A model generated the notes under the pieces. It searched no databases and was not told the origin of the DNA. It was given only the letters and a program-made list of their open reading frames with translations. A stretch of DNA of 64,000 nucleotides from a virus. Its lineage: Duplodnaviria; Caudoviricetes. Shown here piece after piece: positions 764 through 26,069 of this stretch. The translations under genes were made by a program, and so were the position numbers. The stretch's first letter is position 1. Each line of letters opens with the position of its first letter. The DNA lies in the IMG/VR virus record IMGVR_UViG_3300018089_000001, positions 32,001-96,000 of that record, one strand, 5' to 3'.

Positions 764-1119
764 CCCTCCTCCGACTGGAGGTTAGGGGGGAGGAGGAGCG
801 GGACGAGCCGGACGAGCCCCTCCCTGTCCCCGACAGTCAGCGGGACGTGCTCGCTCGTGTTCGTCACCTTGACCACGATCTCCTCACCGGCCGGGATGAC
901 CTGCCGGACCTCGATGTGGGCCGCCGAGGGCAGCGCGATGAGGTTGCAGTTCGCGGCCACGCCCAGCCGGACGTCCATCGACACCTTGGGCGGCAGGGAC
1001 CGCTCGAACGGGTTCCGTCCGATGAACCAGTGGGGGGTCTGGGTGGGCCGGAGCCCGTCTCCGATCAGGTGCCAGACCACGCGGGGGCCGGTGGTCTCCT
1101 TTTCAGCATTCTTCGCCAT
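760..1119 (-). CDS. Degenerate trimeric dUTPase-fold protein
   Basis: SLPP..DVRLGV, GEEIVVKVTN..VPLTVGDREGLVRLV resemble dUTPase strands (GEI.V.L.N...I..GDRIAQLV); catalytic motifs absent. Confidence 0.45.
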   Translation of the reverse strand: MAKNAEKETTGPRVVWHLIGDGLRPTQTPHWFIGRNPFERSLPPKVSMDVRLGVAANCNLIALPSAAHIEVRQVIPAGEEIVVKVTNTSEHVPLTVGDREGLVRLVPLLLPPNLQSEEG

Positions 1120-2275
1120 CTGTTCCTTGTCGTTCAGTTGCCTCAGCAGTCGCCGCAGGAACCTCTCCTGCCACCGCATCTCCTACCAGCCCCTCGAGCA
1201 CGTCCACGAAGTTGCGGACGTCCATGTGAGACAAGATATGCGCGGCCTCCTCACGGATGACCCTCCTCCGGATCGGGGACACGTTTCGTAGCTCGGTGGC
1301 CTGCTCGAGGAGGCCCTGGGCGTCCCCGACCACCCGCTGCGCGTACTGGCCGACGCCGAGGTGGCACGCCAGCCCGATCGGAACGCTCCCGAACAAAACG
1401 GCCTCCCACGGCCGGGGCGTGATGAAGCCGCTCTCATAGTACGACTGCTTCGCGAGGAGTGGGACGGCGGCCACCCGGGAGTACGCCTCACGGAAACCCC
1501 GCACGCCGATCCGACCTGCGAAGGTGACGCCCGGCCAACGCCGCCGGACCTCCTCCGCGGGCTCCCACTTGCCCCAGAACTTGACCCGATGGGTCCTCGG
1601 AGGGGCGATCGGGCCGATCCAGCGGTCGATCGTCTCGTCCCGCTCGTAGCGGGACCCGATGTAGCCGAGGTGGTGGGACGGCTTCCGTTCGTCGATGTCG
1701 TGTTGGAGCAGGTCCGCGGTGACGAAGGGCGGCTCGACGCGAGTGGCCCCGATCAACGATCGTGACGCTGTCTCGATGACCTTGACTCCATGCCAGAATG
1801 CGAGGGACTCTTCGTCCAACTTGTGATCGAGATCCCAGACCACGACGGGGACGCCCAGATCGAGATAGTGGCGGAGGACCTCGACCTGCCGGTCGAGGTC
1901 GGACTGGAAGTTGGGCTTTCCGCGGTCCTCCGGAGTGTTTCGACCCGGGATGGACCACCGCCACTCGATCAGGACCATGTCCAGCTCGGGGAACCTGACG
2001 TCCGAGAGTCTCGTCCAGCCCCGGACGAGCATCCGCTCGTAGGAGAGGAGCCGCTTCCGGCCGCTGAAGGCTGAGAAGAGGTCCCCGCCCAACCGGGTGG
2101 CGGCCGGGGCGTCGAGGTTCGGGCCCAGGGGGATGAGCTTGTGACCCCGTCGCTCACACTCGTGCTCGATGGACCACGAGTACGTCGCATTGCCGTCGGG
2201 GGTCGACAACTCCGACCCGTCGGGAGCCATCTTGACGTCGCCGAGGAAGCCCCGGAAGAGGTAGCCGATCCTCAC
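1103..2275 (-). CDS. GT-B glycosyltransferase, T4 beta-glucosyltransferase-like (putative DNA glycosyltransferase)
   Basis: YIGSRYER, KFWGKW and YSRVAAVPLLAKQSYYESGFITPRPWE parallel the BGT C-domain (..Y.DNFITLRVWE); GTG start overlaps upstream stop. Confidence 0.7.
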   Translation of the reverse strand: MRIGYLFRGFLGDVKMAPDGSELSTPDGNATYSWSIEHECERRGHKLIPLGPNLDAPAATRLGGDLFSAFSGRKRLLSYERMLVRGWTRLSDVRFPELDMVLIEWRWSIPGRNTPEDRGKPNFQSDLDRQVEVLRHYLDLGVPVVVWDLDHKLDEESLAFWHGVKVIETASRSLIGATRVEPPFVTADLLQHDIDERKPSHHLGYIGSRYERDETIDRWIGPIAPPRTHRVKFWGKWEPAEEVRRRWPGVTFAGRIGVRGFREAYSRVAAVPLLAKQSYYESGFITPRPWEAVLFGSVPIGLACHLGVGQYAQRVVGDAQGLLEQATELRNVSPIRRRVIREEAAHILSHMDVRNFVDVLEGLVGDAVAGEVPAATAEATERQGTDGEEC

Positions 2276-2541
2276 TGATCGTACACGCCCTCCGCGAGGG
2301 CCCCGTTGAGGTACTCGAGGTGCCTCCGGATCCACCGCATGAACGTCAGGGCCTTGTCGCTCGGAAGAAACTCGCCCCCGCCGGCATCGGAGACGGGAAT
2401 CGGGAAGTCGAAGGAGTGGATGGAGCAGGTGCCACCCTCGGTGGTCCCCTCCCAGTCGATCCTGTACCACAGGTTACCGTCCTGGTACCGCTGGAACCAG
2501 GCGATGCTCTTCGCGAGTTGAACGATCGTCGGCAGCTTCAC
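2272..2541 (-). CDS. Hypothetical protein
   Basis: MKLPTIVQLAKSIAWFQRYQDGNLWY...FMRWIRRHLE; coupled at both ends. Confidence 0.65.
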   Translation of the reverse strand: MKLPTIVQLAKSIAWFQRYQDGNLWYRIDWEGTTEGGTCSIHSFDFPIPVSDAGGGEFLPSDKALTFMRWIRRHLEYLNGALAEGVYDQ

Positions 2542-3152
2542 AGGCCCATCTCCCTCTCGCCCAGCAGGGCGAGGCAACGCTTCGTGTCGAAGTCCTCCCG
2601 TTCCCTCCCGCTCAGGTGGAGGGACTGGGAGGTGTCGTAGCGGACGACACGGCAGTCCGTCCAACACATGAACATGTCGTACATCCGCTTCACGTCCCAG
2701 TACCGCTCCGGCGGGACCAGCTCGTCCTGTTCCTGGGGCTGGACGGAGGCGTAGAGGTACAGGATCACCGTCCCGAGGTTCACGTGGGCGTGGTCGATCT
2801 CGTCCAGGAGCCGCACGTCGGTCTCCCGCTCGAACACGGCCGAGTACACCCACTCGCAGGGGTAGGCCCGGTCGCTGATGAAGCGATATCCGGTCTGCTG
2901 GAGAAAGTGCGTGAGCGTGTAGTCGAAGGCCAGCGACGAGCGGCCGCCCTGTCGAAAGATCTGCTTCTCGGTCGGGCACTTGAACACCGGGATCCCGGTG
3001 AGCTCCGACATGCGTTTGGCGATCGTGGTCTTCCCGACTCCGTCGGGGCCGACGACGAGGACCGACGGACCCTTTCGGATGACTCTGGGCTTGAGAGCCC
3101 ACTCGGTGTCGGTCTCATCGGCAGTGCTGTCGATGACTATCGTGTCCTGCAT
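2538..3152 (-). CDS. Deoxynucleoside monophosphate (thymidylate-type) kinase
   Basis: Walker A GPDGVGKTT followed by ISDR..PCEWVYS, typical of the TMK fold. Confidence 0.75.
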   Translation of the reverse strand: MQDTIVIDSTADETDTEWALKPRVIRKGPSVLVVGPDGVGKTTIAKRMSELTGIPVFKCPTEKQIFRQGGRSSLAFDYTLTHFLQQTGYRFISDRAYPCEWVYSAVFERETDVRLLDEIDHAHVNLGTVILYLYASVQPQEQDELVPPERYWDVKRMYDMFMCWTDCRVVRYDTSQSLHLSGREREDFDTKRCLALLGEREMGL

Positions 3153-3319
3153 CAGTCCTCCATCGGATCACGGGGTTCCAGCTCACGCTCCACGGCGCGC
3201 TCGACGGCCCACTCGAACTGCTCGTTGATGTGTTGGGCGAGCCATGCAAGGGTCTTCCTCGTGGACCCGTCGACCCCGGCATCGGTCATCACCCTCGCGA
3301 GTTTCTCGAGGTCTATCAC
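3152..3319 (-). CDS. Small hypothetical protein
   Basis: C-terminal part of ORF 3152..3478; GTG start overlaps upstream stop. Confidence 0.5.
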   Translation of the reverse strand: MIDLEKLARVMTDAGVDGSTRKTLAWLAQHINEQFEWAVERAVERELEPRDPMED

Positions 3320-3738
3320 TTGCGTCTCCTTCGCATGCGGCGGAGGGTCCGCTGGGCCCTCTCGTTCATGATAACACCGTCGAGCCTGGAGGCCTCCTCG
3401 AGGGTCAGGAGCTCGCCGCACCTGCGGAGCTCTTCCTCGGTCACGACGAGGTACGTCCAGCCGTTCGCGGCGGCCCACGCCTCCGCGGCGCGCCTCTTCG
3501 CCGTGTTGTTGCGGTTCCCGGCGCGGGAGCTCGGCTTGATCTCGACCAGCGTCCTCGTCTGGGGGAGCGTGAGGTCCACCACGTAGGTCCTCCTCCCCTC
3601 TTTCCCGTAGGGTATCCTCGTCGCCTCATAGAGCATCGTGGACCCCAGGATTAGGCCGTCGGCCTCCAGGTTACGGATGACCGCCAGCTCGAGCAGGCTC
3701 CTGAACCGCGTCCCGCGATAGGTTCCGGAGAAGGCCAT
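3316..3738 (-). CDS. TnsA-like / T4 gp4-like PD-(D/E)xK endonuclease
   Basis: FRSLLE...YE..RIPY...YVVDL...LVEIKP motif. Confidence 0.7.
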   Translation of the reverse strand: MAFSGTYRGTRFRSLLELAVIRNLEADGLILGSTMLYEATRIPYGKEGRRTYVVDLTLPQTRTLVEIKPSSRAGNRNNTAKRRAAEAWAAANGWTYLVVTEEELRRCGELLTLEEASRLDGVIMNERAQRTLRRMRRRRK

Positions 3739-4094
3739 CAGCCCCCGTACGCGGTCTCAAACGCCCGATCGACCTGCCTCTGGACCTCTGGCGTCACGTC
3801 TGGTTCGGTGAACAGCGACTCCGTCGCGACCCGGGTGTCAGAGACCGGCAGCTTATAGCAGCTCAACATCACGCCCAGCTCATTCCGTTCCACGGAGAAC
3901 GAGGCGGAGGACGCCATCTCCAGGAAGGACTCGAACGGGACGATGATGCAGACCGGTTTCCCGAAATGGAGGTGCTCGATGACCCGCTTCCGCATGGCCT
4001 CGCACGGCTCCCGATACCTGTCACCGACGTACGAGGCGGGCGCGAGCGGGTCCCCTTCAAACCTGATGAAGAAATACGAGTCGATGGTCTTCAC
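3738..4094 (-). CDS. Hypothetical protein
   Basis: ORF track; overlaps with neighbours. Confidence 0.55.
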   Translation of the reverse strand: MKTIDSYFFIRFEGDPLAPASYVGDRYREPCEAMRKRVIEHLHFGKPVCIIVPFESFLEMASSASFSVERNELGVMLSCYKLPVSDTRVATESLFTEPDVTPEVQRQVDRAFETAYGG

Positions 4095-5182
4095 GGGACC
4101 TCGAAGAGTAGGGACCAGCACTCCATCGCGTCACCGAGTCGGCTCCAGTACGCCGCGTGCTCGCCGCCGAACCCCCGGACCGCGGAGGCGACCCTCCGGT
4201 AGCATTCGGTGGGTGTCCGGAGGCCATCGAGTCGCACCGCGTCGATCCTCTCCCAAAACGTTTCGTTCTGTTCGATCCCGTTGGCCTCCTTGCGGAGGTT
4301 CTTGAACGGGTCGGACGCCCGGTCGTGATGGATGTGCGGGGTACCTGTGCTGACGACCCACCCGAGGTGGTCGCAGATCCTCTTTTGGATGATGCCGCAC
4401 CATATGTCCCCCATCCTATCGAACGGAAGGGGCTCGGTGAAGCCCTCGAAGCCCCTCCGCACCGACTTGATCTGCCCCATGAGCAGGTGGTAGCTCAGCG
4501 GGATCGTCTCGCGCCGCCACATCACGTTCATCCCGCAGAAGGGGAAGAATGCCCCGTGCGGGACGATGCGGTTGTCATGGGTGTACGTCTCCGGGACCGG
4601 ATCGACGAGCTGCTGGGGGGCGTCGTAGTCGAGGACGCCCTGCCAGATCCCGTGGTTGACGTGGACCGGCCGCGAGCCGAGGTTCCGGTACGGGACCCCG
4701 CGCGGCCGGACGCTGTTCAGCGTGTTGAACCACCTCGTGCGTTGCAACATCCCCCTATGCAGGAGATCGAGCTGCTCGTAGCCCTTCGCGGGGTAACAGT
4801 CGTCGTCAAGGGTCTGCAGGAAACCGTACCCCTGGCTCCAGGCCCACCAGTAGCCGAAGCTCCTGACGGTGTCCGAGCGGCGGGGAATGATCCACGACCA
4901 AGCGTGCATGTCGATGTCCTCCCAGCAGAAGTGCTGGGCGACGTCGGTCACGGACGGCGTGAAGGTCTTCCGCGGATTGTCCTCGACGAGGATGAGGTCG
5001 ACCCGATCGAGCATCCCGGTGGGTCGCCACTCCGCGACGAACCGCGAGAAGCTCTCCCTCCTGATCGAGGGGACGACGAGGGCCACGCGGTCTCTGTTAG
5101 GACCTGTTAGGCCCTCGTCGTCATCGTCAGGGCCTAGATTCTCTGAGAGATCCTGAGGGAGGAGGGGGTAGTCAGCTTCCAT
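4091..5182 (-). CDS. RGP / UDP-arabinopyranose mutase family protein (GT75)
   Basis: TLDDDC, RGVPY, HGIW..VLDYDAPQQLV, FPFCGMN, DIWCG..KRICDHLG..V.TG.P.I.H.RASDPFKNLRKE match plant reversibly glycosylated polypeptide motifs along the whole length. Confidence 0.85.
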   Translation of the reverse strand: MEADYPLLPQDLSENLGPDDDDEGLTGPNRDRVALVVPSIRRESFSRFVAEWRPTGMLDRVDLILVEDNPRKTFTPSVTDVAQHFCWEDIDMHAWSWIIPRRSDTVRSFGYWWAWSQGYGFLQTLDDDCYPAKGYEQLDLLHRGMLQRTRWFNTLNSVRPRGVPYRNLGSRPVHVNHGIWQGVLDYDAPQQLVDPVPETYTHDNRIVPHGAFFPFCGMNVMWRRETIPLSYHLLMGQIKSVRRGFEGFTEPLPFDRMGDIWCGIIQKRICDHLGWVVSTGTPHIHHDRASDPFKNLRKEANGIEQNETFWERIDAVRLDGLRTPTECYRRVASAVRGFGGEHAAYWSRLGDAMECWSLLFEVP

Positions 5183-5546
5183 TTCGAATCCTCCAGAGCT
5201 CGATTGCCTGGCAGCAGTGGCCCTCCATGCCGAACATGTCGGAGAGGCCGCTGGCCGATCTTATCACGTCGAGCAGCCACGGGTTCTCCCTGATCCACTC
5301 GTCCCAGAGCCAGGAGTATAGCGCGGCGCACTCCGCCTGGTTCGTCACGCCGACTCCGGCGACCCGCTTCGCCTTGGCGGCCCTCCAGTCGAGACCAGTC
5401 GAGCCGTCCTCGAAGACCTTGTACGCCTGGTACGCCTCCTCAATGGAGGCCCCTCCGAGGCACGACGGCCTCGCGTAGAACGCCGAGAGCCGGGTGTCAC
5501 CCCGGCTACTACACTCGAGGTACGGTGGGTCGCCGACGCGGATCAA
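5172..5546 (-). CDS. NADAR/YbiA-like protein (tentative)
   Basis: LSAFY...SIEEAYQAYKVF resembles NADAR FSNF...E..YQA.KF. Confidence 0.4.
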   Translation of the reverse strand: MIRVGDPPYLECSSRGDTRLSAFYARPSCLGGASIEEAYQAYKVFEDGSTGLDWRAAKAKRVAGVGVTNQAECAALYSWLWDEWIRENPWLLDVIRSASGLSDMFGMEGHCCQAIELWRIRNGS

Positions 5547-5662
5547 TCGTCCCCCGAGAGCAGGTCGGCGATCATCGCGACCGGAGACATCACGAAGATG
5601 AACGCCCAGAACAGGACGTGGATGCACCACGGCTCACCACGGAGGTCACCGAAGTCTGCCAT
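5543..5662 (-). CDS. Small membrane protein (39 aa)
   Basis: Manual translation MADFGDLRGEPWCIHVLFWAFIFVMSPVAMIADLLSGDD; overlaps at both ends. Confidence 0.45.
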   Translation of the reverse strand: MADFGDLRGEPWCIHVLFWAFIFVMSPVAMIADLLSGDD

Positions 5663-5877
5663 CAGCAGATCCTCCTGTCACCGGCGGACGGACGGGGGAT
5701 GGGCTTCAGGATGTCCGCCAGGTTCGGCCTGTCGTGGGTCTGTTTCTGGAAGACGAGGGCGAGGTGGTCGTTGACCATGCGGATCTGCGCCGGACTCAGC
5801 GTGATCGCGGTATCGTCGCCGACCATCGACAGCTCGAAGAACCCCTGGAGCCAGTAGCAGAACTGCTCGGGCGTCAC
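5662..5877 (-). CDS. Small phage protein (MTPEQFCYWLQGFFE type)
   Basis: N-terminal motif common in phage hypothetical proteins. Confidence 0.65.
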   Translation of the reverse strand: MTPEQFCYWLQGFFELSMVGDDTAITLSPAQIRMVNDHLALVFQKQTHDRPNLADILKPIPRPSAGDRRIC

Positions 5878-6305
5878 ATGCCCTCCCGGTGGACGAAGTT
5901 ACCGCAGTTCCCGTTGGAGCACTCGACGCGGACGAACCCGACGTACGCGTCCGAGCCGCAGAGCGGGCACCCGTTCCTGTGCGGCCAGAAGTGGTCGTCG
6001 TGGGCCCTCGCCATGACCTCGGTCTCAGGATCGAGTCCGTCCGGGTCCTTGACCGGATATGGGACGGCCGCGATGGGTAGATCGATCTCGACGCAGGGGT
6101 TCACGCCCCCCCACCTCCTGTCGAAATCGAAGAGCAGCGAGGTCGGCAGCGGCATCGGCTGGATGCGCGGCTTAGTGATCTCGAAGATGCCGTCGGTGTA
6201 CGACATGACCTTGGTCCTCTGGTACTGAAGAAAGGGGAGCCTCTTCAGCTCCTCAGCGTACTCGTTCCACAGGGCCTTTACCTTGGCCCACTCGTCTTCG
6301 CCCAT
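5874..6305 (-). CDS. Hypothetical protein with C-terminal Zn ribbon
   Basis: CPLCG...ECSNGNC. Confidence 0.6.
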   Translation of the reverse strand: MGEDEWAKVKALWNEYAEELKRLPFLQYQRTKVMSYTDGIFEITKPRIQPMPLPTSLLFDFDRRWGGVNPCVEIDLPIAAVPYPVKDPDGLDPETEVMARAHDDHFWPHRNGCPLCGSDAYVGFVRVECSNGNCGNFVHREGM

Positions 6306-6315
6306 CCGAGTCCTT

Positions 6316-7863
6316 TCAGATTTCGATGCTGTCGACCGGAATGAAGTAGCTCGCGGCCTGCCTGGCCGAGTGGGCCCACCCCGGCTTCCCGACCACGAAG
6401 CCGTTGGGGTCCTCGAGCTTACGGTGCAGCACCGTGATGTACACGTCGCCCTGGCGGACGGCCGCCCGGACGTGCTCCCAGATGCCAGCGAACGCCGGCG
6501 CCTCGAACTCCATGCCGTCCCGGTCCGTGAGACGGAGCCAGGCCATGGGCCGCCCGTTCTTCTGGGGCCTCTCCTTGATCGACTTGACCAGGAGCGGGGC
6601 TATCAGGACCTCACGGTCCTCGTCCTCGACGAAGGCCGCGTAGCCCGGCTCGCAGAGACCCTCGCCGACGAGGCGGTCGACCTTCGCGTGCCGGTCGTTG
6701 ATGGAGAACGGGGTGCCGCGGAGGTTGAACCCGAGCAGCTCCCGCTCCCGCTCCATCAGCTCGATCGGGTCGTCCTTCGGGCCCCAGATCGCCTCGAGGA
6801 CGGGGGCCACGGCGTCCCGGTTCTTCTTATGGGAGAGCCGCTTGTCGGACCTGAAGGCCTCGTAGCGGAGGCGGAGGGTCGCCACGGACGTCCCGGGGAC
6901 CAGGTCGGTGAAGGCGCCCACGGCCATGAGGGCCTCGACGGACGTCTTCGTCGCCCCCGAGTCGAGCAGGAAGTCGGCGAACGAGGCGTACGGCTGACGG
7001 GCCGCGATCTTCTCGACCGCGGACGGTCCGATCCCCTTCACCGCCGTGAAGGGAAGCCGGATCCCGTTCCCTTCGATCCGAGGGGAGCGGCCCGACAGGT
7101 TCACGTCGACGGGCTTGATCTCGAAGCCCTGGCGGCGGATGTCGTTCACGTACGTCTGCAGGTCGGCCGCCTGGCCCGCGGAGAGCAGCGCGGCGAAGAA
7201 CTCCATCGGATAGTACGTCCGGAGGTACGCGGTCTGCATCGTGACCATGCCGTACGCCTTGGCGTGGGCCCGGTTGAAGCCGTAGGAGCCCCACTTGCCG
7301 AAGGCCTCCCAGAGGTCCTCGGCGGCGGAGCGGGCCATCCCGTTCCCCACGGCGCCCTCGACGACCTTGCCACGTAGCTCGGCGTCCTCCTGCCGGAGGA
7401 ACTCGTCGGACTTGCTCTTGTCCTTCTTGAGGAAGTGCTTGCGGACCCGGTTGGTGTCCTTCCAGGACATCCCGCAGAGCTTCCGGCAGGTCTCCAGGAG
7501 GTGCTCCTGGTAGACGAAGCAGCCGTAGGTGTCCCTCAGGACCTCCTCGAGCAGCGGGTGGTCGTACGTGACGTCCTCAAGGCCGTTCTTCCGCCTCGCG
7601 TACATCTGGTCCATGCCTGAGCCGAGTGGACCCGGACGGTAGAGGGCGCAGACGGCCGCGACGTCGTCGAAGCAGGTCGGCTTGACCTGCTGGAACAGCT
7701 TCATCATGCCCTGGGAGGTGACCGAGAAGATCCCCGTCATGTTCCCCTCCCAGAAGACCGTCCGCATGACCTCCATCGAGTTGAGGTCCATGGTCTTCGG
7801 GTCGATCTCATTGACGACGTCCTGGTAAGAACGTGGGACCCGCTTGATCGATTTGATCCGCAT
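6316..7863 (-). CDS. dnaE: DNA polymerase III alpha subunit, C-terminal half (split gene)
   Basis: ALYRPGPL, TYGCFVYQE, YGFNRAHAKAY, YYPMEFFAALL, VKGIG and C-terminal OB fold. Confidence 0.92.
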   Translation of the reverse strand: MRIKSIKRVPRSYQDVVNEIDPKTMDLNSMEVMRTVFWEGNMTGIFSVTSQGMMKLFQQVKPTCFDDVAAVCALYRPGPLGSGMDQMYARRKNGLEDVTYDHPLLEEVLRDTYGCFVYQEHLLETCRKLCGMSWKDTNRVRKHFLKKDKSKSDEFLRQEDAELRGKVVEGAVGNGMARSAAEDLWEAFGKWGSYGFNRAHAKAYGMVTMQTAYLRTYYPMEFFAALLSAGQAADLQTYVNDIRRQGFEIKPVDVNLSGRSPRIEGNGIRLPFTAVKGIGPSAVEKIAARQPYASFADFLLDSGATKTSVEALMAVGAFTDLVPGTSVATLRLRYEAFRSDKRLSHKKNRDAVAPVLEAIWGPKDDPIELMERERELLGFNLRGTPFSINDRHAKVDRLVGEGLCEPGYAAFVEDEDREVLIAPLLVKSIKERPQKNGRPMAWLRLTDRDGMEFEAPAFAGIWEHVRAAVRQGDVYITVLHRKLEDPNGFVVGKPGWAHSARQAASYFIPVDSIEI

Positions 7864-8099
7864 CAGTGACCCAGAGAGAGTGGGTCGAGGCCCAGTGGAA
7901 TCTCCGGCAGCCCCAACGATCTGAGGCTCTCATTGGCGGTGAGGTGCTCAGCGTAAACCTCCCGGTCTATCTCGGAATCCGGATGGAACCCGTGGCCTTG
8001 GTAGCCGCAACCGAAACACCTGAATAGGCAGACGCCGTCGAGAAAACCCCTCCGGTGCTCCGCGGAGCACCGGGGACAGACAAAGTGGATGTCACTCAT
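7863..8099 (-). CDS. Small Zn-ribbon protein between the dnaE halves
   Basis: CPRC...CFGCG; ATGA overlap-type coupling upstream, TGATG with dnaE-C. Confidence 0.6.
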   Translation of the reverse strand: MSDIHFVCPRCSAEHRRGFLDGVCLFRCFGCGYQGHGFHPDSEIDREVYAEHLTANESLRSLGLPEIPLGLDPLSLGH

Positions 8100-8862
8100 A
8101 CGCGAAACGTCTCCCCCTCGTTGTTCCAGAGACACGGGTGCCACGGGCGCAGGCGGCGATGGCCGCCTCGCTGATATCATAATGCTGACTGGCGAGACGG
8201 ACGGATTCAAAGACAAGGCCATCGTCGAGGCACTTGACACGCTTGACCTTGGAGAGGCGGATGCGATCGCGATGTTCCTGCGTGATCACGCGATTGCTGA
8301 TCCTCTCTTTCGTCTCCTCGGAGTGCTTCTTCCCGTAGAAGGGGTTCTTAGAACCGGACTGGTCGCCCTTCTTCTTGCGGGTCTGTCGTTTTGGAGGGAC
8401 GACGATATCGAGGCTAGTCTTCGCGGTGGACGGATCGGGAGCATCATCAGGGGTTCGCTCGAGAAAACGACGTAGCTGTGATTCACGCATTCTCGCTCGG
8501 GTCTCATCTGAGAGCTTATGGCCGAGCAGTCCGCCGCCTCCATCGGTACAGTTCAAGAGTGCGCATCCCTCGCTTCTCTTTAAGCGAATCCAACGCACCT
8601 CCGCGTCATTCAAGAGGGAATTCGCGAGTTCCCAGTCTTCAGACTGTCCGAGGTTTTCGAGCGTCACCACCCGAGGACTCATTCCGAGTCCTTTCAACTT
8701 TCGAATCCAACAGTAAACAGGATAGTGTGCTTCTGCAACTCTCTTGTTCTGCAGATGCCTGTATGGGCGAACTAAGCCGCTCGCAGATCGTCCGACATAT
8801 CGAACTTCATCGGTTCGCGGATCCACCAGCCCGTATATCAGAAGATTCCAGAATTTCGTCAT
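8092..8862 (-). mobile_element. Free-standing GIY-YIG homing endonuclease (NUMOD3 repeats, NUMOD1-like C-terminus)
   Basis: IYGLVDPRT..VRYVG; LLNCTDGGGG; GHKLSDETRARM, NPFYGKKHSEETKERIS; FESVRLAS...I..CARG; lower GC than flanks. Confidence 0.88.
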
Positions 8863-10852
8863 CTTCAATGAGCTGGTCGACTCTGATCGATCCTCGCTGT
8901 GTTTGCACTCGCTCATATGACAAAAACTTTCGGATTGAACCGTCCTCCATCTCCAGTTCGATCAATGGATGAGTTGCGGCGATCAGTTTGCAGGCTTGAG
9001 AGATGACCTCGAGCGAGGCAAGCGAAAGTATGTCAAACTTCACCAGCCCCATGTTGGAGGCCGACTTGTTCACGATCCCGTCGGTGAACGAGGCCTGGAC
9101 GACCCCCTTGGAGCGGAACACCGACGTCTCGGAGGGCAGGTCGTCGCCGATGACCACGCCCGAGGCGTGGCGCCCGACGTGGTGCTCCCGCCCGTACAGG
9201 CTCCGGACCGCACGCTCCAGCTGGGGGTACTGACGCATGAACGAGTTGAACGTCGGACTGAGGCGGTAGATGTCGTCGAGCTTGATGACGATGGCCGAGC
9301 GGGTCACCCCCTCGTCCTCGCTGTACAGGGCCCGCATCTCCCGCTCGATCTGCGCGTTGACGCGGTTGCAGAGGTTGTGGTCGATGTCGTGGACCCGGCA
9401 GAGGTCCTTCAGGAGGCCCTTGATCTGGTTGGTCCCGTACGTGCTGATGCAGGCGACGTTGTCCTCGCCGAAGTCGCGGCGGAGGATGTCCTTGACCCGG
9501 TCCACGTCCTGGAAGTCGAGGTCGATGTCCGGGGTCTCGACGCGGTCGATGTTGATGAACCGCTCGAACATCAGGTTGTGCTCGATCGGGTCGATGTTCG
9601 TGATCCCGGTGAGGTAGCAGATCAGGCTGCCGGCCGCCGATCCGCGGCCGGGACCGATGAGCATCTCCTTCCGCGCCGCGTCGCAGATGTTCCGGACGAC
9701 GAGGAAGTAGTTGGCGAGCCCCTTCTCCCGGATGACGCCCAGCTCGTAGCTCAGACGCTGGACGTACCGGTCGTCCCGCTCCAGCCCGCGGGACCTCAGT
9801 CCCACGGCCGCGGACCGCATGAGCTCCCTGAACGTGTCCGCGTACGGCAACGACGGGAGCCGCATCCGCGTGTCGGGCTCGAACTGCTCGACCAAGGAGT
9901 CCGCCATGAGCGTGTTATCGAACGCCTGGGCAAGGACGTCCTCCGGAACCTCGGGGTTGTTCAGGCGGAAGCTCTCCCACAGTTCGTCGGCCGACTTGAC
10001 GAAGAGGGAGCGCACGTCGAACCTATAGTCGGGCGGCAGGTTCCCGAGAGTGAGGCCCCCAGCCTTACCCCGATGCGTCAGGAGGAGGTGGAGGATCTGC
10101 TGCGACTGCCAGTCCGCGGGGTCCACATAGTGGCTGTCTTGCGTGACAAGGAGTGGGATCTTCGTCTCGTCGTGGATCTTAATGAGGGCGGAATTCAGTT
10201 CGGCTTGGTACGGCGCCGCGTTGGTCTGCAGCTCAAGGAAAAACCGACCCTGAAAGATCTCGGAGTACTCTTGAGCTAGCTTGACGACTTCATCCCATTC
10301 GCACTCGCCGCGTTTGAACAGCGAATAGCGAGCGCTGATGACACCGCCCATGCATGCTGATGAGGCGACTAGGCCCCTGCTGAGCTCAGCGAGCATCTCC
10401 TTGTCAAGGCGCGGCTTTTGGAAGTAGCCTTCCTTGTGGGCTCGGTACTGGAGCCGATAAAGGTTCGCCAGACCCTCCCTGCTTTGAGCCACCAAGACGA
10501 GATGGCCCTTCCGATAGAGGACCTTCCGCTTCGTCTTATCGAGGGCAGCGCGGTCAAGGTCGAACTCGACGTCCTCGACCGCGGCTTTCTTCTCAAGTGC
10601 CAGCTGCTCCTTGAGGGCTCGCCAGTCCTTGAGGCTATCGATGACGTAGCTCTCCATTCCGAGGAGAGCCCTCACGCCCTGCTTCTTGGCCTCGAGGAAA
10701 GTCCGTGCGTGCGAGTGGCAATGCCCGTGATTCGTGATCGCGAAGGACTTGAGTCCCTTGTCCTTCGCCGCCTTGACAAGCTCTTCAGGAGAACAGACGC
10801 CATCCTGAAAGCTGAAGGCATCGTGCGTATGCAGACTTGCCATCATCCTCAT
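8807..10852 (-). CDS. dnaE: DNA polymerase III alpha subunit, N-terminal half (PHP + palm) with Hint-like tail
   Basis: HTH..FS..DG, AITNHG, GPGRGSAAGSL, FERF, PDIDLDF, GRHASG, GLVKFDIL. Confidence 0.93.
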   Translation of the reverse strand: MRMMASLHTHDAFSFQDGVCSPEELVKAAKDKGLKSFAITNHGHCHSHARTFLEAKKQGVRALLGMESYVIDSLKDWRALKEQLALEKKAAVEDVEFDLDRAALDKTKRKVLYRKGHLVLVAQSREGLANLYRLQYRAHKEGYFQKPRLDKEMLAELSRGLVASSACMGGVISARYSLFKRGECEWDEVVKLAQEYSEIFQGRFFLELQTNAAPYQAELNSALIKIHDETKIPLLVTQDSHYVDPADWQSQQILHLLLTHRGKAGGLTLGNLPPDYRFDVRSLFVKSADELWESFRLNNPEVPEDVLAQAFDNTLMADSLVEQFEPDTRMRLPSLPYADTFRELMRSAAVGLRSRGLERDDRYVQRLSYELGVIREKGLANYFLVVRNICDAARKEMLIGPGRGSAAGSLICYLTGITNIDPIEHNLMFERFINIDRVETPDIDLDFQDVDRVKDILRRDFGEDNVACISTYGTNQIKGLLKDLCRVHDIDHNLCNRVNAQIEREMRALYSEDEGVTRSAIVIKLDDIYRLSPTFNSFMRQYPQLERAVRSLYGREHHVGRHASGVVIGDDLPSETSVFRSKGVVQASFTDGIVNKSASNMGLVKFDILSLASLEVISQACKLIAATHPLIELEMEDGSIRKFLSYERVQTQRGSIRVDQLIEDDEILESSDIRAGGSANR

Positions 10853-13025: not shown

Positions 13026-13256
13026 TCACACCGTGAATTCCGCGGCCTCGATCTCGATATGCAGCCATCCGGTCGCGACGATGTGTAGCTTTCCGTCAGC
13101 AGTCCTCAAGCGATGCGTCCCGCTTGGCCTGGCGAGGAAATGCGTCACGTCCGCGATGCAAACCTTCTCCCCTCCAGGGAAGGAGTACACCCGTGACTTC
13201 TCTGGCGGATCCAGCCTGGTCAACTCCACAACAGCAGCTTCGGGAAAATCAGTCAT
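13026..13256 (-). CDS. Small phage protein
   Basis: EKSRVYSFPGG...SGTHRL..ADGK.H....GW; TGATG coupling. Confidence 0.6.
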   Translation of the reverse strand: MTDFPEAAVVELTRLDPPEKSRVYSFPGGEKVCIADVTHFLARPSGTHRLRTADGKLHIVATGWLHIEIEAAEFTV

Positions 13257-13621
13257 CAGTATCCCTCCTGTAGCCTCCGCCGCACGACCGCGTTCTTCCG
13301 TCGAAACTCCTCGTAGAGCGCGTCGGGCGTCATCCCACTGATCACGCAGAGTTCCAGGAAGAACGCGAAGGCGTCGCCGATCTCCTCCCGGTAATGCTCG
13401 AGGTCCACCTCGGCGGCGTCGCTGAGGCGGTGCATCTTGTTCTTCAGCTCCACGGTGGCCTCGAAGAGCTCCGCGACGCAGTTGAAGACGCACTCCTTGA
13501 CGAAACGCTGGCCCGGCTTCGTACCGAGGTCAACGGGGTACTCGGGGAAGCGGTCGTGCTCCACGAGCATGTCCATGTACTCACGCTGGAGGGCGAAGGC
13601 CCGGTCGAGCTTGTCACTCAT
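13256..13621 (-). CDS. All-alpha dCTP/dUTP pyrophosphatase (T4 gp56 / dimeric dUTPase-like)
   Basis: AELFE...EEIGDAFAFF...LYEEF..KN....R...GY. Confidence 0.75.
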   Translation of the reverse strand: MSDKLDRAFALQREYMDMLVEHDRFPEYPVDLGTKPGQRFVKECVFNCVAELFEATVELKNKMHRLSDAAEVDLEHYREEIGDAFAFFLELCVISGMTPDALYEEFRRKNAVVRRRLQEGY

Positions 13622-14782: not shown

Positions 14783-15202
14783 TCAGGCCTCCGCCTTTCC
14801 GAACATGTCCGGGAGCTCGTACCGGTCGTATGGGCGGCCACTGAAGCCGTGGGCCACGACCAGGCGTCCCAGTGACGAGTTGAGGGAGTAGAGCTCACAC
14901 CACGGTTGGACGGAGAGCAGGGCCTTCCGCACGGAGCGGGCGTGCTCCTCCCCCGTGACCGTGACTGCGACCAGCCGCGGTCGGCGCTGGGAGATGCTCG
15001 CGTACGTCCGTCTAGTCGGCTCGGCACCGTCGACGACGACGACGCTCTCCGGAACGACGAGCAGAAGCATCTCAGACAGCGTCAGCGGACGGAACCAGGC
15101 GGCCGGGTAGGTCCGCGACTGGTCGCGATTGGCGATGACGACGACACGCTCGTAAGAGCGGACGTCCAGGACGAGTTCGATGTTAGGGCGATTGCTGCTC
15201 AC
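14783..15202 (-). CDS. Hypothetical protein
   Basis: ORF track. Confidence 0.55.
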   Translation of the reverse strand: MSSNRPNIELVLDVRSYERVVVIANRDQSRTYPAAWFRPLTLSEMLLLVVPESVVVVDGAEPTRRTYASISQRRPRLVAVTVTGEEHARSVRKALLSVQPWCELYSLNSSLGRLVVAHGFSGRPYDRYELPDMFGKAEA

Positions 15203-16196
15203 GCTTGTCCTTCTCGATCTTCTCGATGACGCGCCTGTCGCGGTGGTCGACCAGCATGGAGACCATCCATTCCAGGGTCGTCTGGTCCGCGTCCCTCTCG
15301 GGTGAGGAGAAGGCGGGGGGCCAGGAAACGTTCAAAGGGGCCAGGGGGTTGCCGACTGACTGCCGACACGCCGGCTCGTACTGTGTCGCCAGCCACTCCA
15401 TCTGGTCCCACGTCACGGGGAGCATCGGAGCGGGCCAGGGGTGTTCCTCATTGGCCACCTCCCCCGCCATCCCCCAGTGTGTGTCATAGAGGTGGAGGGA
15501 GCCCGCCGTGTGATGGTAGGACCCCACGTCGTCCACCGGCACGCCGCGGCGACGCAGTTCCAGCATGAAGAGCTCCTGCAAGCAGGTGAAGCTGAAGACG
15601 TCGTAGGGCAGACCCCAGACGACGTCGTTGCTCCTCATCACCACGTGCATGTGGAGGTGGCGGTCCCTGATCAGGAGCTGTATCGAGAGGGTGCAGGGGA
15701 CGTCCTTGGAGCCCTGGACGACGGTCCGCCGGAGGTCCTCGGGCTCATTGATGTGCATGACGGCGCGGCGGCTGGCCGGATCGGCCGTCAGCTCGGCGAG
15801 GACCTGATCGAACTGGCCCTCCCCCTCCGTGAAGGAGGGGGAACCCGGTGGACCGAACCAGCGACCCCTGAACAGGCGGTTGCCGTAGGCGGAGTTGATG
15901 GTCAGCCCATCGTCGGAGAACTGGGCCATGCGCTTGTTGTAGTAGCGCATCGTCTCCAGGTCCGTGTCGCCCCGGAGGTACCAGCACAGCTCCCCGACGG
16001 CGAAGCCGTAGTTGACGGCCCGAGCGGGACTCGTGATGAGCCTGTTCCGGGGATCCGTCAGGGTGAACGTCGGAGCCACGAGCTCCCGGATCAGCTTGCC
16101 GCGGGGAGCGGACTCGAAGTCGAAGGACCACCGCAGGTCACCCATCAGGTCGCGGTGGATCTCCTCCAACGAGGAGCGGGTGATGTTGAGGGTCAT
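15183..16196 (-). CDS. Thymidylate-synthase-fold dCMP hydroxymethylase-like protein
   Basis: SRRA, DVPCT, MRSNDVVWGLPYD (Asp at the specificity position, as in T4 gp42), GSLHLY. Confidence 0.8.
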   Translation of the reverse strand: MTLNITRSSLEEIHRDLMGDLRWSFDFESAPRGKLIRELVAPTFTLTDPRNRLITSPARAVNYGFAVGELCWYLRGDTDLETMRYYNKRMAQFSDDGLTINSAYGNRLFRGRWFGPPGSPSFTEGEGQFDQVLAELTADPASRRAVMHINEPEDLRRTVVQGSKDVPCTLSIQLLIRDRHLHMHVVMRSNDVVWGLPYDVFSFTCLQELFMLELRRRGVPVDDVGSYHHTAGSLHLYDTHWGMAGEVANEEHPWPAPMLPVTWDQMEWLATQYEPACRQSVGNPLAPLNVSWPPAFSSPERDADQTTLEWMVSMLVDHRDRRVIEKIEKDKREQQSP

Positions 16197-16492
16197 CCCG
16201 CGTCCCACATCCGCACGTATGTGTCGCAGGCCTGACAGACGAGGTCCGCTTCGTGCCACATCATGTCGTAGTTCTCCATGCGAAGCTCCGTACCTCCACA
16301 CTCCGGACACGTGTTGTCATGCTTGCGGGCAGCGGTGAAGGCCTGCTCGTAGGTCGGATGGTCCCACGCCTGGGAGTGATCAAGGCCCTCAGCGACCAAG
16401 CGAGCCTCGATGCCTTTGAGGGAGGCCCAGAGCTCACGACTCCTCTCGATGTAACGGGCCCTTGCCTCAGTCGAGGGTTGACGGTAACTCAT
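16193..16492 (-). CDS. Hypothetical Zn-ribbon protein
   Basis: CPECG...CQAC. Confidence 0.55.
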   Translation of the reverse strand: MSYRQPSTEARARYIERSRELWASLKGIEARLVAEGLDHSQAWDHPTYEQAFTAARKHDNTCPECGGTELRMENYDMMWHEADLVCQACDTYVRMWDAG

Positions 16493-17373
16493 CCGAACGC
16501 TCCTCCGATCAGGCCGCGAAGTGTGGCGTCGATGCCTCCTGGCATCCTAAAACCGGCGGCCTTCGCGTGGCCGCCGCCGCCGTAGAGGCCCGCGATGACG
16601 CTGCAGTCGATACCGTTGGGGCGTGAACGGAGACTGACCATACCGCCCATGAGATCGAGGATGACGGCCACGTCGACCAGTGGTCGGGTGTCCAGGATCC
16701 TGTTGGCCGTGTCGTTCTTCCAGTCCTGGGGGCACGCGGCGGCGGCCGCGACGATGCGCCCAGTCGGTTCGGGTAACCAGATCTCGCTCTGGACGGCGGC
16801 GCGCGCCGCCCGCTCCGCGTAGACTGACCTGACCGCCTCGGCGCCGGCCGCCCGGGCCGCCATGGCGGGGTCGTTGATGATCCCGGCCTCATGCTCGAGG
16901 AGGACGTCGAGGAACTGCTCCTGCGTGTACGTCGCCGCGAGGTCCGCGAGTCGCCGACCGACCGGATTCTCGAAGCGACCCAGGTCGTAGTCCCTCATGC
17001 CCCCGATGAAGGCCTCTGTGTCATCGTCGAGGTTGCGTAGGGCGAGCCTGTTGGCCATCAGCGACGTCCCGCACTCCCCCATGTCGAACTCACAGCGTGG
17101 GTCCCTCCCGTGGACCCGCTGGGAGCTCACGTGGTGGTCGAAGACCCAGAAGGGTCGTCCGGCCGCCGGGTCACTGAGGTCCTGCGGACAGCAGTCCACG
17201 TACCAGACCTCCTCGACGGGACCCGGGACGTCGTCCCCGGACAGCTGCAACCCCGAGGGATTCCTGAACAAGACAAGATCCCTACTCCCGCCTGCCCAGA
17301 GGTACATCAGCGCCGACCCGGTGCCGTCGAGACACCCCCTGTGGGTCACCAACAGCGTGCGGTTGAGACTCAC
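16489..17373 (-). CDS. DHH/DHHA1 phosphoesterase
   Basis: H..CLDG, FDHH, SLRS, GGGGH..AAGF. Confidence 0.85.
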   Translation of the reverse strand: MSLNRTLLVTHRGCLDGTGSALMYLWAGGSRDLVLFRNPSGLQLSGDDVPGPVEEVWYVDCCPQDLSDPAAGRPFWVFDHHVSSQRVHGRDPRCEFDMGECGTSLMANRLALRNLDDDTEAFIGGMRDYDLGRFENPVGRRLADLAATYTQEQFLDVLLEHEAGIINDPAMAARAAGAEAVRSVYAERAARAAVQSEIWLPEPTGRIVAAAAACPQDWKNDTANRILDTRPLVDVAVILDLMGGMVSLRSRPNGIDCSVIAGLYGGGGHAKAAGFRMPGGIDATLRGLIGGAFG

Positions 17374-17864
17374 AGGCCCATCGCGATGTTGATCGCGCTC
17401 CATAGGTCCACGCACGTCGAGTCGCTGGGGTCATGCAACGCATGCCTGAAGTCGGGGTACTCACGGAGGTACATCTTGAAGGACGCGCCTCCGTGCCTGA
17501 CGTTGGCCAGGCGGTCAGCCAGCTTCAGCCGGACCGCGCGCGGACCAGCCGCCCGAATCTTCGGATAGGTCAGGGCGTTGCGGACCCTCCTGTTGAGGCC
17601 CTCTTCCGAGGTGACGGCCCCCACCAGCGCCGCCACGTCCTCCCCGAAGTTCTCCTCGACGTCCCGGAGCTTGACGTCCGTGTCCTCCACGATGTCGTGG
17701 AGCCATGCGGCGGTGAGGTCGACGTAGTCCGCCACCCCGAACTCCAGGAGAATCCGCTCGACGTCCTGGAGGTGATGCGTGTACGGGACGTTCCCGTACA
17801 GCTGCCCCTTCCGAATGACGTGATGGAGCGTGGCGTAGGCCTTAGCGGCCGACAGCGCGTCCAC
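17370..17864 (-). CDS. RelA/SpoT-type HD hydrolase (small alarmone hydrolase / Mesh1-like)
   Basis: PYTHH, AAWLHDIVEDT, LKLADRLAN. Confidence 0.85.
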   Translation of the reverse strand: MDALSAAKAYATLHHVIRKGQLYGNVPYTHHLQDVERILLEFGVADYVDLTAAWLHDIVEDTDVKLRDVEENFGEDVAALVGAVTSEEGLNRRVRNALTYPKIRAAGPRAVRLKLADRLANVRHGGASFKMYLREYPDFRHALHDPSDSTCVDLWSAINIAMGL

Positions 17865-18146: not shown

Positions 18147-18155
18147 ATCATATCA
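18147..18155 (-). promoter_or_regulatory. Extended -10 promoter (TGATATGAT), leaderless geometry
   Basis: TGnTAnnAT match 6 nt before ATG. Confidence 0.45.
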
Positions 18156-18626
18156 CCTGCCGCCCTTGATGACAGCTCCGGGAGATATGAATATGCCGAG
18201 ACGAGCAGCGTTGTCGAGCGCACCGGGGCGGGCCACACACGCCCTCTCATCGAGGCATCGGCCGAAGCCGACGGGACCCTTCTGCGTGTCGACGACGCTT
18301 CCGCACAGGGCGCACGGGGCCGGTTTGAGCAGGGTGCTGTGGTGCAGCATCCCGGGCCTCGCGAGACGCTCGAACTTCCCCGCGACGGAGTCGTTGACCC
18401 GGCGCCAGTCGATCACTCCGAGACGGGAGAGGAGGTCAGCCACGGCGAGGATGTCAGTGATCTCGTCCTCGAGGGACGTCTTATTGTCGATCCCGCTGTA
18501 CGGGCTGACGCTGCTCACGCCGTGCCGGAGGATCTTTCCGACCCGCTGGACCACCTCGCCGCACTCCTCCGCGAGGATCGCCAGTAGCTCCGCGACCTCG
18601 GGGTCCAATCGATTGTAGTGCTCCAC
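18153..18626 (-). CDS. MazG-like pyrophosphatase
   Basis: ILAEECGEVVQ...KILRHG...LEDEITD. Confidence 0.75.
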   Translation of the reverse strand: MEHYNRLDPEVAELLAILAEECGEVVQRVGKILRHGVSSVSPYSGIDNKTSLEDEITDILAVADLLSRLGVIDWRRVNDSVAGKFERLARPGMLHHSTLLKPAPCALCGSVVDTQKGPVGFGRCLDERACVARPGALDNAARLGIFISPGAVIKGGR

Positions 18627-24475: not shown

Positions 24476-24678
24476 GGTGCCTCCTCCGCCCAGAGGATGT
24501 GCTCCGCGTCACGCTCGACGCAGTAGCAGGGGCGGGCCGCGGCCAGCTGCGCCTGGGCGTCGCTATAGACGGGTCTGCCGTCCCTGTGCTCAACCCAGAT
24601 GAAGGCCGTCTCCCAGTCCGCCGGCGGGCACAGCCCCGTCTGTCGGTTGATCCTGAGCACCGTGAGCTTCCGACTCAC
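24472..24678 (-). CDS. Small hypothetical protein
   Basis: GTGA overlaps at both ends. Confidence 0.5.
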   Translation of the reverse strand: MSRKLTVLRINRQTGLCPPADWETAFIWVEHRDGRPVYSDAQAQLAAARPCYCVERDAEHILWAEEAP

Positions 24679-26069
24679 CGCGTCCACCTCTGCCCGTCGC
24701 CCCACGGCCGCTCGGTGCCAGCAGGGACCCTATCGACCATCCGGGCCACCCCGCCCGACAGCGTGTTCGAGGCCTGGATGACGTCGTCGGCCGCGTCGTC
24801 GTCGGTGTTCAGCTGCATCGCGACCGGCATGGTCGGGGTCGCTCCCGTGTCCGAGAACGAGTTGCCCGTGATCTCCGCGAAGTTGATCCTCGCGTTTCCG
24901 TTCCCGCCCAGGACCACGCCGTGCTGGCCGAAGTTCGAGATCGAGTTGCTGCGGATGACGGCGGACCGGACCGGTCCGAGCTCGCGGGTCGCCCTGATGA
25001 AGACGCCCGGGGCGAACCCGGGCCGACCGGCTCCGACGATGCGGTTGCCCGCGATAGCGATGTCCCTGACGCACACTCCGGAGACCCCGATCATGGGTTG
25101 GTCCGTCCGTAGGTCGTTGGCGATCACGGAGACCGACCCGGGCATCTGGTCGACCTCGGTCCCGGCGACCTGGACGATGCTACCCCCGTCGTATGACGGT
25201 GCGGCGGTCGCGTGGATCGTGTTCCTATGGACGAGGATCCTGTCGCAGGTGCGGTACACGTACACGGACGGCTTGCTCGAGGCGTTGACGCCGACGTTGT
25301 CGGCGTAGACGACGTCGGTGATCCAGAGGATCAGGGCCGCCCCGTTCACCACGTTCCGGGTGACGGTCCAACCGGAGCTGCGCACGGCCGCGGAGGTCCC
25401 GGTCATGGTGAGGACGAAGTCGTCCGAGGCGCCCAGGGTGTCGAACAGGCAGTCCGTGATCGTCACGTCGTCGATCGGCTTCCCGTTGACGCCGTCGGAC
25501 TCCGAGTCGAACTGCTGGGCCGCGTTGCCGACGAACTGGGACTTGGTGAACGTCCCTCCGGCGGTGCCGCCCCCAAGGGTCAGGCCGTTCCGGCCGTTCG
25601 AGCGGGCCAGGCAGTCGAACATCGTCACGTCGTCGGAGCCGTCATACGCGTAGAACCCGTCGCCGCAGAAGTTCTCCGCGGTCACGTGCCGGAGGGTCAT
25701 CCGCGGTCCCTGCTTGGCGAAGATCCCCGCCTGGTGTGGGTTCCCCTGCGGCTGGTTAGCCCTGTTCCCGTCGACCGTCAGGTTGACCGCGGTGAACCCC
25801 GGGGATGAGACCTGCACCATGCTCATCGAGCCCACCACGTTGGGAGCCAGCAGCAGCCGGGTGCCCTGCCTCGTGTCACCGCGGAGGACCGTGCCCGGCC
25901 TGGTCTGGACGCACCAGGGCCGCCCCTCCGTCGGGGTGAGTCGGTACGTCCCGTCCGGGAAACGGACGGCGTCGGATCCACCCGCCGCGTCGATGGCGCG
26001 CTGCACCGCGACGCGGTCGTCAGTCACGCCGTCGCCGACGGCCCCGAAGTCCCTCACGTTGATCGTCAT
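24675..26069 (-). CDS. Right-handed beta-helix (pectate lyase 3-like) protein, putative depolymerase
   Basis: NVRDFGAVGDGVTDD..AVQRAIDAA, FPDGTY, repeated Asn-ladder strands. Confidence 0.8.
   Translation of the reverse strand: MTINVRDFGAVGDGVTDDRVAVQRAIDAAGGSDAVRFPDGTYRLTPTEGRPWCVQTRPGTVLRGDTRQGTRLLLAPNVVGSMSMVQVSSPGFTAVNLTVDGNRANQPQGNPHQAGIFAKQGPRMTLRHVTAENFCGDGFYAYDGSDDVTMFDCLARSNGRNGLTLGGGTAGGTFTKSQFVGNAAQQFDSESDGVNGKPIDDVTITDCLFDTLGASDDFVLTMTGTSAAVRSSGWTVTRNVVNGAALILWITDVVYADNVGVNASSKPSVYVYRTCDRILVHRNTIHATAAPSYDGGSIVQVAGTEVDQMPGSVSVIANDLRTDQPMIGVSGVCVRDIAIAGNRIVGAGRPGFAPGVFIRATRELGPVRSAVIRSNSISNFGQHGVVLGGNGNARINFAEITGNSFSDTGATPTMPVAMQLNTDDDAADDVIQASNTLSGGVARMVDRVPAGTERPWGDGQRWTR

Follow-up and report, generated by a model that had tools for sequence, protein, structure and literature searches.

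The 64,000 nucleotides analysed here (the window) are bases 32001-96000 of a 185,486-bp IMG/VR record (IMGVR_UViG_3300018089_000001) and carry, on the minus strand, a gene for a predicted nucleoside diphosphate (NDP)-sugar pyranose-furanose mutase of the RGP type, glycosyltransferase (GT) family GT75 (P0001; 4091–5182; positions are those of the window unless marked as genome). Judged by its sequence, P0001 is a new viral member of GT75 with an intact catalytic set. The record belongs to a distant T4-like myovirus, with genes for Gp23 capsid protein, tail sheath, DnaE replicase, ribonucleotide reductase (RNR), DnaB, ThyX, NT5C, MazG and an HD hydrolase. A first-pass annotation made from the DNA letters had proposed a full-length GT75/RGP protein with intact catalytic motifs, encoded by a phage; all of this is supported and its gene boundaries are exact, to which the strand, left unstated there, can be added. 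P0001 is part of a conserved module next to the replicative polymerase gene and may make the NDP-furanose donor for glycosylation of DNA containing 5-hydroxymethylcytosine (5hmC), a reading for which the case stands about even, with mutase activity, sugar, nucleotide, DNA acceptor and protective role all predicted.

P0001 starts with ATG, 7 nt downstream of a Shine-Dalgarno sequence (GGAGG), and encodes 363 aa. Its G+C content at third codon positions (0.87) matches that of other genes in this 66% G+C genome, and a plus-strand open reading frame (ORF) of 317 aa that overlaps it is the usual shadow ORF of high-GC DNA. The N-terminal ~30 residues are acidic, disordered in the structural model and missing from many homologues. 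No paralogue of P0001, or of the neighbouring glycosyltransferase gene P0271 (see below), was found elsewhere in the genome.

A Pfam search, the first check proposed in the earlier annotation, gave a full-length match to RGP (PF03214; E 8.8e-36, 124.2 bits, cut-off 23.8) in which P0001 residues 29–358 cover profile positions 2–335 of 342. PHROGs and NCBIfam have no family for either P0001 or P0271. A family profile built from an alignment of 35 homologues (down to 31% identity) matches solved structures of just two kinds, each along its whole length, namely rice UAM2 (8cid, 5e-45) and the bacterial mutase MtdL (7xpr, 7yua and others, 7.6e-39). The AlphaFold model of P0001 (predicted local distance difference test score, pLDDT, 90) finds the same two proteins with Foldseek, 8cid OsUAM2 first (1e-21) and then MtdL (8e-21), and its seven best matches are all GT75 structures (E 1e-21 to 9e-20; template modelling (TM) score 0.67–0.77). 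Generic GT-A matches, which the earlier annotation had named as the outcome that would speak against a mutase, begin only at 2.7e-7 with TM <0.45, thirteen orders of magnitude behind the GT75 enzymes, among which is a biochemically proven mutase. P0001 thus has a GT-A fold, with a Rossmann-like N-terminal domain, the GT75-specific core and a helical C-terminal region, rather than the GLF/flavin adenine dinucleotide (FAD)-binding fold of UDP-galactopyranose mutase (UGM), of which it is not a member although the ring change is of the same kind. No flavin-dependent UGM (GLF domain) was matched at E 0.1 or better anywhere in the genome, leaving P0001 as the only mutase candidate there. To our knowledge, GT75 is the only known flavin-free route to NDP-furanoses, and its enzymes have so far been characterised only in plants and two antibiotic pathways.

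Nine catalytic residues of MtdL (D87, D109, D111, R159, D195, R257, D260, H287 and R289) correspond to P0001 D104, D126, D128, R161, D185, R256, D259, H286 and R288, which, with the exception of D104 and R288, do not vary among the 35 homologues. In MtdL, activity is abolished by mutating D87, D109, R159, D195, R257 or D260; D111 and H287 are Mn ligands, R159 is the nucleophile, D260 the proposed general base and D195 and D87 helper aspartates, while R257 and R289 bind diphosphate and sugar, R257 contacting the beta-phosphate and the ring oxygen (PMC9937993). On the minus strand of the window, the metal- and NDP-binding DxD of P0001 (DDD, D126–D128; 4799–4807) aligns with MtdL D109–D111. It is followed by RGVPY (residues 161–165; 4688–4702), where R161, G162 and P164 are invariant and R161 equals MtdL R159 and OsUAM1 R158, the arginine that serves as nucleophile and autoglycosylated residue of the RGP site (PMC9937993, PMC6861824). 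DYDAPQQL (185–192; 4607–4630) is the third DxD, in which D185, equivalent to MtdL D195, is accompanied by D187. FDRMGDIW (4400–4423) holds R256 and D259 (MtdL R257 and D260), and HHDRAS (4313–4330) holds H286 and R288 (MtdL H287, the Mn ligand, and R289). The five motifs listed in the first-pass annotation are therefore all present, namely DDD, RGVPY and DYDAPQQL as above, CGMN at residues 216–219 and ICDHLG at residues 269–274, an agreement much too good for chance. D104 is kept in the clade of P0001 and replaced by Ser in many distant homologues, as it is in plants.

Of the residues that mutagenesis showed MtdL to need, only two sugar-site positions differ in P0001: MtdL S228-Q229 is G217-M218 in P0001, near the plant G-I (motif G-M-N versus plant G-I-N), so that the pattern here is that of plants. 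According to a review (PMC6861824), the third DxD is DYD in plants, whereas bacteria have DLD and archaea DVD; in the 35-sequence alignment the top 12 rows, which hold the closest relatives of P0001, have DYD, as do two distant homologues, and the others have DLD, DFD or DVD.

Among characterised proteins, the best structural (1e-21) and profile (5e-45) match is rice UAM2 (8cid), a class 2, non-catalytic RGP. UAM2 differs in having DDN and in not having Arg and His at the counterparts of R256 and H286, where 8cid has Thr and Arg, respectively; P0001 keeps the active-class residues at both. Loss of the equivalents of MtdL R257 and H287 is a feature of the non-catalytic plant class 2 proteins (PMC9937993). 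MtdL (A201A pathway) and Hyg20 (hygromycin A pathway) are bacterial GT75 GDP-L-Fuc/GDP-L-Gal pyranose-furanose mutases (7xpr, 7yua; PMC9937993). P0001 shares with MtdL the Mn ligands, the nucleophilic Arg, the general-base Asp, the diphosphate-binding Arg and the S-D pair before a conserved Arg (S103-D104 in P0001), and the two are alike in fold (TM 0.70), but identity is only ~22% and MtdL is encoded in an antibiotic gene cluster, P0001 in a phage replication cluster. With plant class 1 UAM/RGP proteins (OsUAM1, AtRGP1-3; PMC6861824) P0001 shares the whole-length Pfam RGP domain, DDD, the autoglycosylated Arg in R-G-x-P, the DYD form of the third DxD, a G-hydrophobic-N sugar site and a UDP-favouring Pro (P38). 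The plant-like character that the first-pass annotation ascribed to the motifs is seen in DYD, Pro38 and G-M-N. It does not extend to the first DxD, which is E-D-N in P0001 and DGD in plants.

In the phage genome, P0001 lies directly downstream of the replicative polymerase gene, which is split here into a C-terminal half (6316–7863) and an N-terminal half (8807–10852), both on the minus strand. The order DnaE, mutase, P-loop NTPase, GT-B glycosyltransferase is kept in three other loci, L003, L106 and L002, in which the mutases are 65%, 48% and 47% identical to P0001. The P-loop NTPase (2538–3152, minus strand) is weakly kinase-like, with Pfam AAA_28 and other P-loop matches and a match to phrog_761 (‘thymidylate kinase’, 6.4e-10). 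The second partner, P0271 (390 aa; 1103–2275, minus strand), is a candidate DNA glycosyltransferase by its fold, having no Pfam, PHROG or NCBIfam match: a model made from its own alignment (pLDDT 90.8) has a GT-B fold, and the top Foldseek matches are T4 AGT bound to DNA (1.9e-9) and then T4 BGT. A fold search of BFVD with P0271 was not discriminating, returning generic viral GT-B proteins with DNA alpha/beta-glycosyltransferases and Bacillus phage SP-15 transferases among many. A search for a second glycosyltransferase among unassigned upstream genes (322–439 aa) gave probabilities <1% when the GT-B profile was compared with three of them by hhalign.

The same nucleotide-metabolism cluster encodes a protein of 375 aa with the thymidylate synthase (TS) fold (15183–16310, minus strand; Pfam Thymidylat_synt 2.2e-21) that looks like a MilA-type cytosine hydroxymethylase. 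Its best PDB match is MilA, a CMP 5-hydroxymethylase (1e-38), with true TS at ~1e-13, and supply of dTMP is covered in the genome by ThyX. The catalytic Cys is kept; the active-site strand RSNDVVWGLPYD retains an Asp at the counterpart of ThyA D169 and also has Asp at the N177 specificity position. Asp at the latter position is a feature of cytosine-specific enzymes. The 5-hydroxycytosine synthases carry D169N (PMC13326640), and since the D169 equivalent is kept here the protein resembles a hydroxymethylase rather than an enzyme of the 5-hydroxycytosine type. Its gene is syntenic in L002. Two predicted nucleotide pyrophosphatases are found nearby on the same strand: a dUTPase_2-like all-alpha NTP pyrophosphatase, a candidate dCTPase/dUTPase with a weak Pfam match (13256–13621; dUTPase_2 1.1e-3), which is kept in L002, L003 and L106, and a MazG-type nucleotide pyrophosphohydrolase (18153–18626; Pfam MazG 5.2e-6). 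Between the RNR and hydroxymethylase genes is a small HD_4 protein (17370–17864, minus strand) resembling SpoT/RelA hydrolases (TIGR00691 8.5e-17), possibly a (p)ppGpp hydrolase.

Close homologues of P0001 (60–82% identity) were found on many metagenome contigs of 140–215 kb, an indication that such phages make up a whole clade. A quick tree, unrooted and made without plant or archaeal CAZy members, groups the mutases of this T4-like lineage in one clade (SH-like approximate likelihood ratio test support 99) and scatters other phage GT75 copies among bacterial ones, which is consistent with the gene having been acquired once, long ago, by this lineage and several times independently elsewhere. 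Some of these other copies could be placed: one is on a phage contig with GpA-type terminase and portal genes, adjoining methyltransferases; another (L025) is followed by GT2, GT1, GT9 and methyltransferase genes directly after the structural genes; and a third is on a sparsely annotated 187-kb contig, taken to be phage, that has an HNH endonuclease and a faint match to GT1. A tblastn search of 50,697 phage records with P0001 returned one, LR756511, from a 595-kb uncultured phage, and megablast of the region against the same records gave no match. In LR756511.1 (195984–216910; L004) the GT75 gene has two sulfotransferases, methyltransferases and an F5/8-type-C domain protein for neighbours, a hint that this huge phage makes a glycan carrying sulfate or methyl groups. 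A single-protein pattern scan of viral contigs recovered one locus only, and searches of metagenome proteins were far more informative.

Beyond phages the family is widespread. An exhaustive HMMER scan gave 1025 representative homologue clusters, 251 of them below 1e-30, and a scan of one genome per prokaryote species gave at least 574 stretches with 35–44% identity, in Planctomycetota, Patescibacteria, Chloroflexota, Acidobacteriota, Myxococcota and others, megabase chromosomes included. Where contexts were sampled, cellular copies lie in envelope-glycan clusters with short-chain dehydrogenase/reductase (SDR) epimerases, GT8, GT2 and PMT_2-type GT-C genes. One such copy, on a contig of Logan accession SRR7637203 (47% identity), is next to a GT2, two PMT_2-type GT-C genes and an SDR epimerase, a layout that suggests a lipid-linked furanose pathway for the envelope. 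Atlas clusters named ‘RGP domain-containing protein’ are mostly from Uroviricota, and the clusters nearest to P0001 are plant UAMs. The first-pass annotation had called a phage copy unexpected in a family best known from plants; GT75 is indeed uncommon in cultured phages (1 of 50,697 records), but it is common in prokaryotes and present in several phage lineages. Direct transfer of P0001 from a plant to a phage was considered and rejected as unnecessary, bacterial and viral homologues at 35–47% identity being abundant. No paper characterising a viral GT75, or linking one to DNA, was found in the literature.

The favoured reading joins mutase, partners and hydroxymethylase in one pathway, in which the mutase, P-loop NTPase and GT-B genes would act as a conserved module placed directly after the replicative polymerase gene, inside the nucleotide-metabolism cluster. 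P0001, dependent on Mn2+, would open an NDP-pyranose made by host or phage via a covalent arginine-sugar intermediate on R161, with D259 as general base, and would then re-close the sugar as the NDP-furanose. (d)CMP would be hydroxymethylated by the MilA-like enzyme, and the product phosphorylated and incorporated as 5hmC; the GT-B enzyme would glycosylate the hydroxymethyl group on the DNA with the furanosyl donor from the mutase, and the DNA would in this way be protected from host nucleases. Pending chemistry, the module is best classed as a variant of the phage DNA glycosylation pathways. More tentatively, and with the balance somewhat against it, the clade of ~180–215 kb T4-like soil phages would make an undescribed base, a 5-hydroxymethylcytosine carrying a furanosyl sugar whose donor comes from a metal-dependent, arginine-mediated GT75 mutase.

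Furanosyl sugars on phage DNA have precedents: RB69 and DLP3 DNA carries arabinofuranosyl chains on cytosine, and the DNA-glycosylation cluster of Rhizobium phage RL38J1 includes a gene for a predicted flavin-type UDP-galactopyranose mutase (PMC13326640). In RL38J1 (Pootjesviridae) the NDP-sugar mutase adjoins a TS homologue, a kinase and GT-B transferases, and the same furanosyl-donor logic was proposed (PMC13326640). The two mutases are unrelated, however, with an FAD-dependent UGM fold in RL38J1 and a metal-dependent GT-A fold here, and the base modified in RL38J1 is 5-hydroxycytosine, while the TS homologue here bears the signature of a hydroxymethylase. With T4 (gp42, gp56, gp1, AGT/BGT) and the arabinofuranosyl-5-hydroxycytosine phages RB69 and DLP3 the present phage shares T4-like virion genes, a TS-fold cytosine-modifying enzyme and NTP pyrophosphatases, and with T4 a GT-B protein that has AGT and BGT among its best fold matches. 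It differs in that T4 draws on UDP-glucose from the host and RB69 makes UDP-Araf from ribulose-5-P, no mutase being needed in either, and in that the replicase here is DnaE instead of a family B polymerase.

Several observations weigh against this reading. The phage is uncultured and known from a metagenome record, and no modified base has been seen, since no chemistry exists. Base choice is mixed at the positions taken from MtdL T13, N42 and S86 (PMC9937993): P38 is plant/UDP-like, S103 MtdL/GDP-like and P70 like neither, so that UDP versus GDP cannot be called, and the change of both T13 and N42 to Pro means that the GDP specificity of MtdL is not implied. The arabinofuranose role given to the family in the first-pass annotation is likewise not established for P0001, in which neither sugar nor nucleotide can be read from the sequence. 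The hydroxymethylase gene is ~10 kb from the mutase module, not adjoining it, and PDB and NCBIfam searches with the P-loop protein gave generic P-loop matches only, so that a dNMP kinase assignment failed. P0271 has no Pfam BGT/AGT match and is not a sequence-level member (or relative) of those families; in VIA-align its Z score of 21.0 to T4 BGT is tied with PimA, TarM and BshA, and the fold therefore does not single out DNA as acceptor. Sequence-level T4 BGT/AGT was not found in the genome, a blank that for BGT weighs little because the BGT control matched nowhere. The mutases of L025 and LR756511 are in contexts other than DNA modification, and a separate, large glycosylation island in the genome could be the true consumer of a furanose donor.

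This island (genome 137000–154000, minus strand, outside the window) bears on the main alternative, in which P0001 is an active mutase whose NDP-furanose feeds phage glycosyltransferases decorating virion proteins or the infected-cell envelope, not DNA, possibly for shielding of capsid or tail or for exclusion of other phages. The island contains, all on the minus strand, a 1050-aa GT2+GT1 fusion (genome 147346–150498), two GT1 genes (genome 151882–153207 and 144769–145800), a GT2-like gene (genome 146215–147054), a GalE-like SDR (genome 150495–151559) and a heptose-epimerase-like SDR (genome 139248–140180). A smaller NDP-sugar cluster (genome 13–16 kb), also outside the window, adds a third SDR, similar to NDP-glucose 4,6-dehydratases (genome 13174–14208), and the adjoining Glc-1-P cytidylyltransferase-like gene (genome 15069–15923; TIGR02623 1.6e-58, below cut-off), a pair (genome 13174–15923) that would be a phage-encoded start towards a CDP-6-deoxyhexose. 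The glycosyltransferases that follow the mutase behind the structural genes of L025, the sulfotransferases, methyltransferase and F5/8-type-C domain protein around that of LR756511 and the envelope-glycan setting of cellular homologues (GT2, GT8, PMT_2) are in keeping with this alternative. It is nonetheless rather unlikely: the mutase is >100 kb from the island and fixed between DnaE and the P-loop/GT-B pair down to 47% identity, and the predicted cytosine hydroxymethylase would create an acceptor on the DNA itself.

It is improbable that P0001 acts mainly as a glycosyltransferase, either glycosylating itself on R161 as a primer or transferring sugar directly to DNA or to an arginine in a protein of host or phage. 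GT75 proteins are true arginine-autoglycosylating GT-A transferases, with some NDP-sugars showing only the transferase reaction (PMC9937993), and the fold of P0001 is GT-A; yet glycosylation of a second molecule is not known for any GT75 member, P0001 conserves all residues of the mutase cycle, and its fixed neighbour is a dedicated GT-B transferase. Least credible is a role as a general auxiliary metabolic gene (AMG) that boosts host cell-wall polysaccharide synthesis during infection. In soil virome surveys viral GT75 is placed among the AMGs for cell wall or carbon cycling (PMC11032446, PMC12016548) and bacterial homologues are common, but those listings go no further than CAZy labels, there is little for a lytic T4-like phage to gain by adding to its host's wall, and P0001 is conserved vertically with phage-specific partners in a replication module.

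If the DNA-glycosylation reading is correct, it would give GT75 its first role in nucleic-acid modification and provide the first characterised viral member of the family. It would also mean that two unrelated mutase families, UGM and GT75, had been recruited convergently to one viral task, and would correct the habit of scoring viral GT75 as ‘cell-wall/carbon cycling’ AMG. That a vertically inherited viral GT75 is accompanied by a GT-B protein and a predicted cytosine hydroxymethylase suggests that phage DNA is hypermodified here in a chemically new way. Hypermodified bases govern how far DNA is sensitive to restriction enzymes, type IV nucleases, DNA glycosylases and CRISPR, and they are a place to find new DNA-modifying enzymes.

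Upstream of P0001, the 3′ end of a 152-aa ORF (5172–5630, minus strand; phrog_9995, function not known) overlaps the mutase start by 11 nt; a homologue is present upstream of the mutase in L003, and there is a weak match to the DarT1-associated NADAR antitoxin domain (E 1e-3, below cut-off). The genes downstream of the mutase are on its strand, and their stops and starts overlap; they encode a 127-aa ORF, a TnsA-like endonuclease, the P-loop NTPase and the 390-aa protein. The 127-aa ORF (3738–4121, minus strand) overlaps the mutase stop by 31 nt and has no family matches and no homologue in L002, L003 or L106. The TnsA-like gene (3316–3738, minus strand; Pfam Tn7_TnsA-like_N 4e-7; phrog_15427 endonuclease) is not present between the mutase and P-loop genes in L002 and L106 and is probably a mobile insertion; given these distributions, both look like insertions or fast-evolving filler. 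Promoter and terminator scanning of 800–8300 gave counts near the shuffled background and no operon boundary was called. Between the two halves of DnaE, which is unsplit in L002, L003 and L106, is a NUMOD3 homing endonuclease gene (8092–8916). Elsewhere in the genome, a Pth2-type peptidyl-tRNA hydrolase is encoded outside the window (genome 23335–23730; Pfam PTH2 8.9e-33), and a 567-aa protein with pectate-lyase-like right-handed beta-helix domains (24675–26378, minus strand), encoded outside the main tail module, is probably a depolymerase or tail spike.

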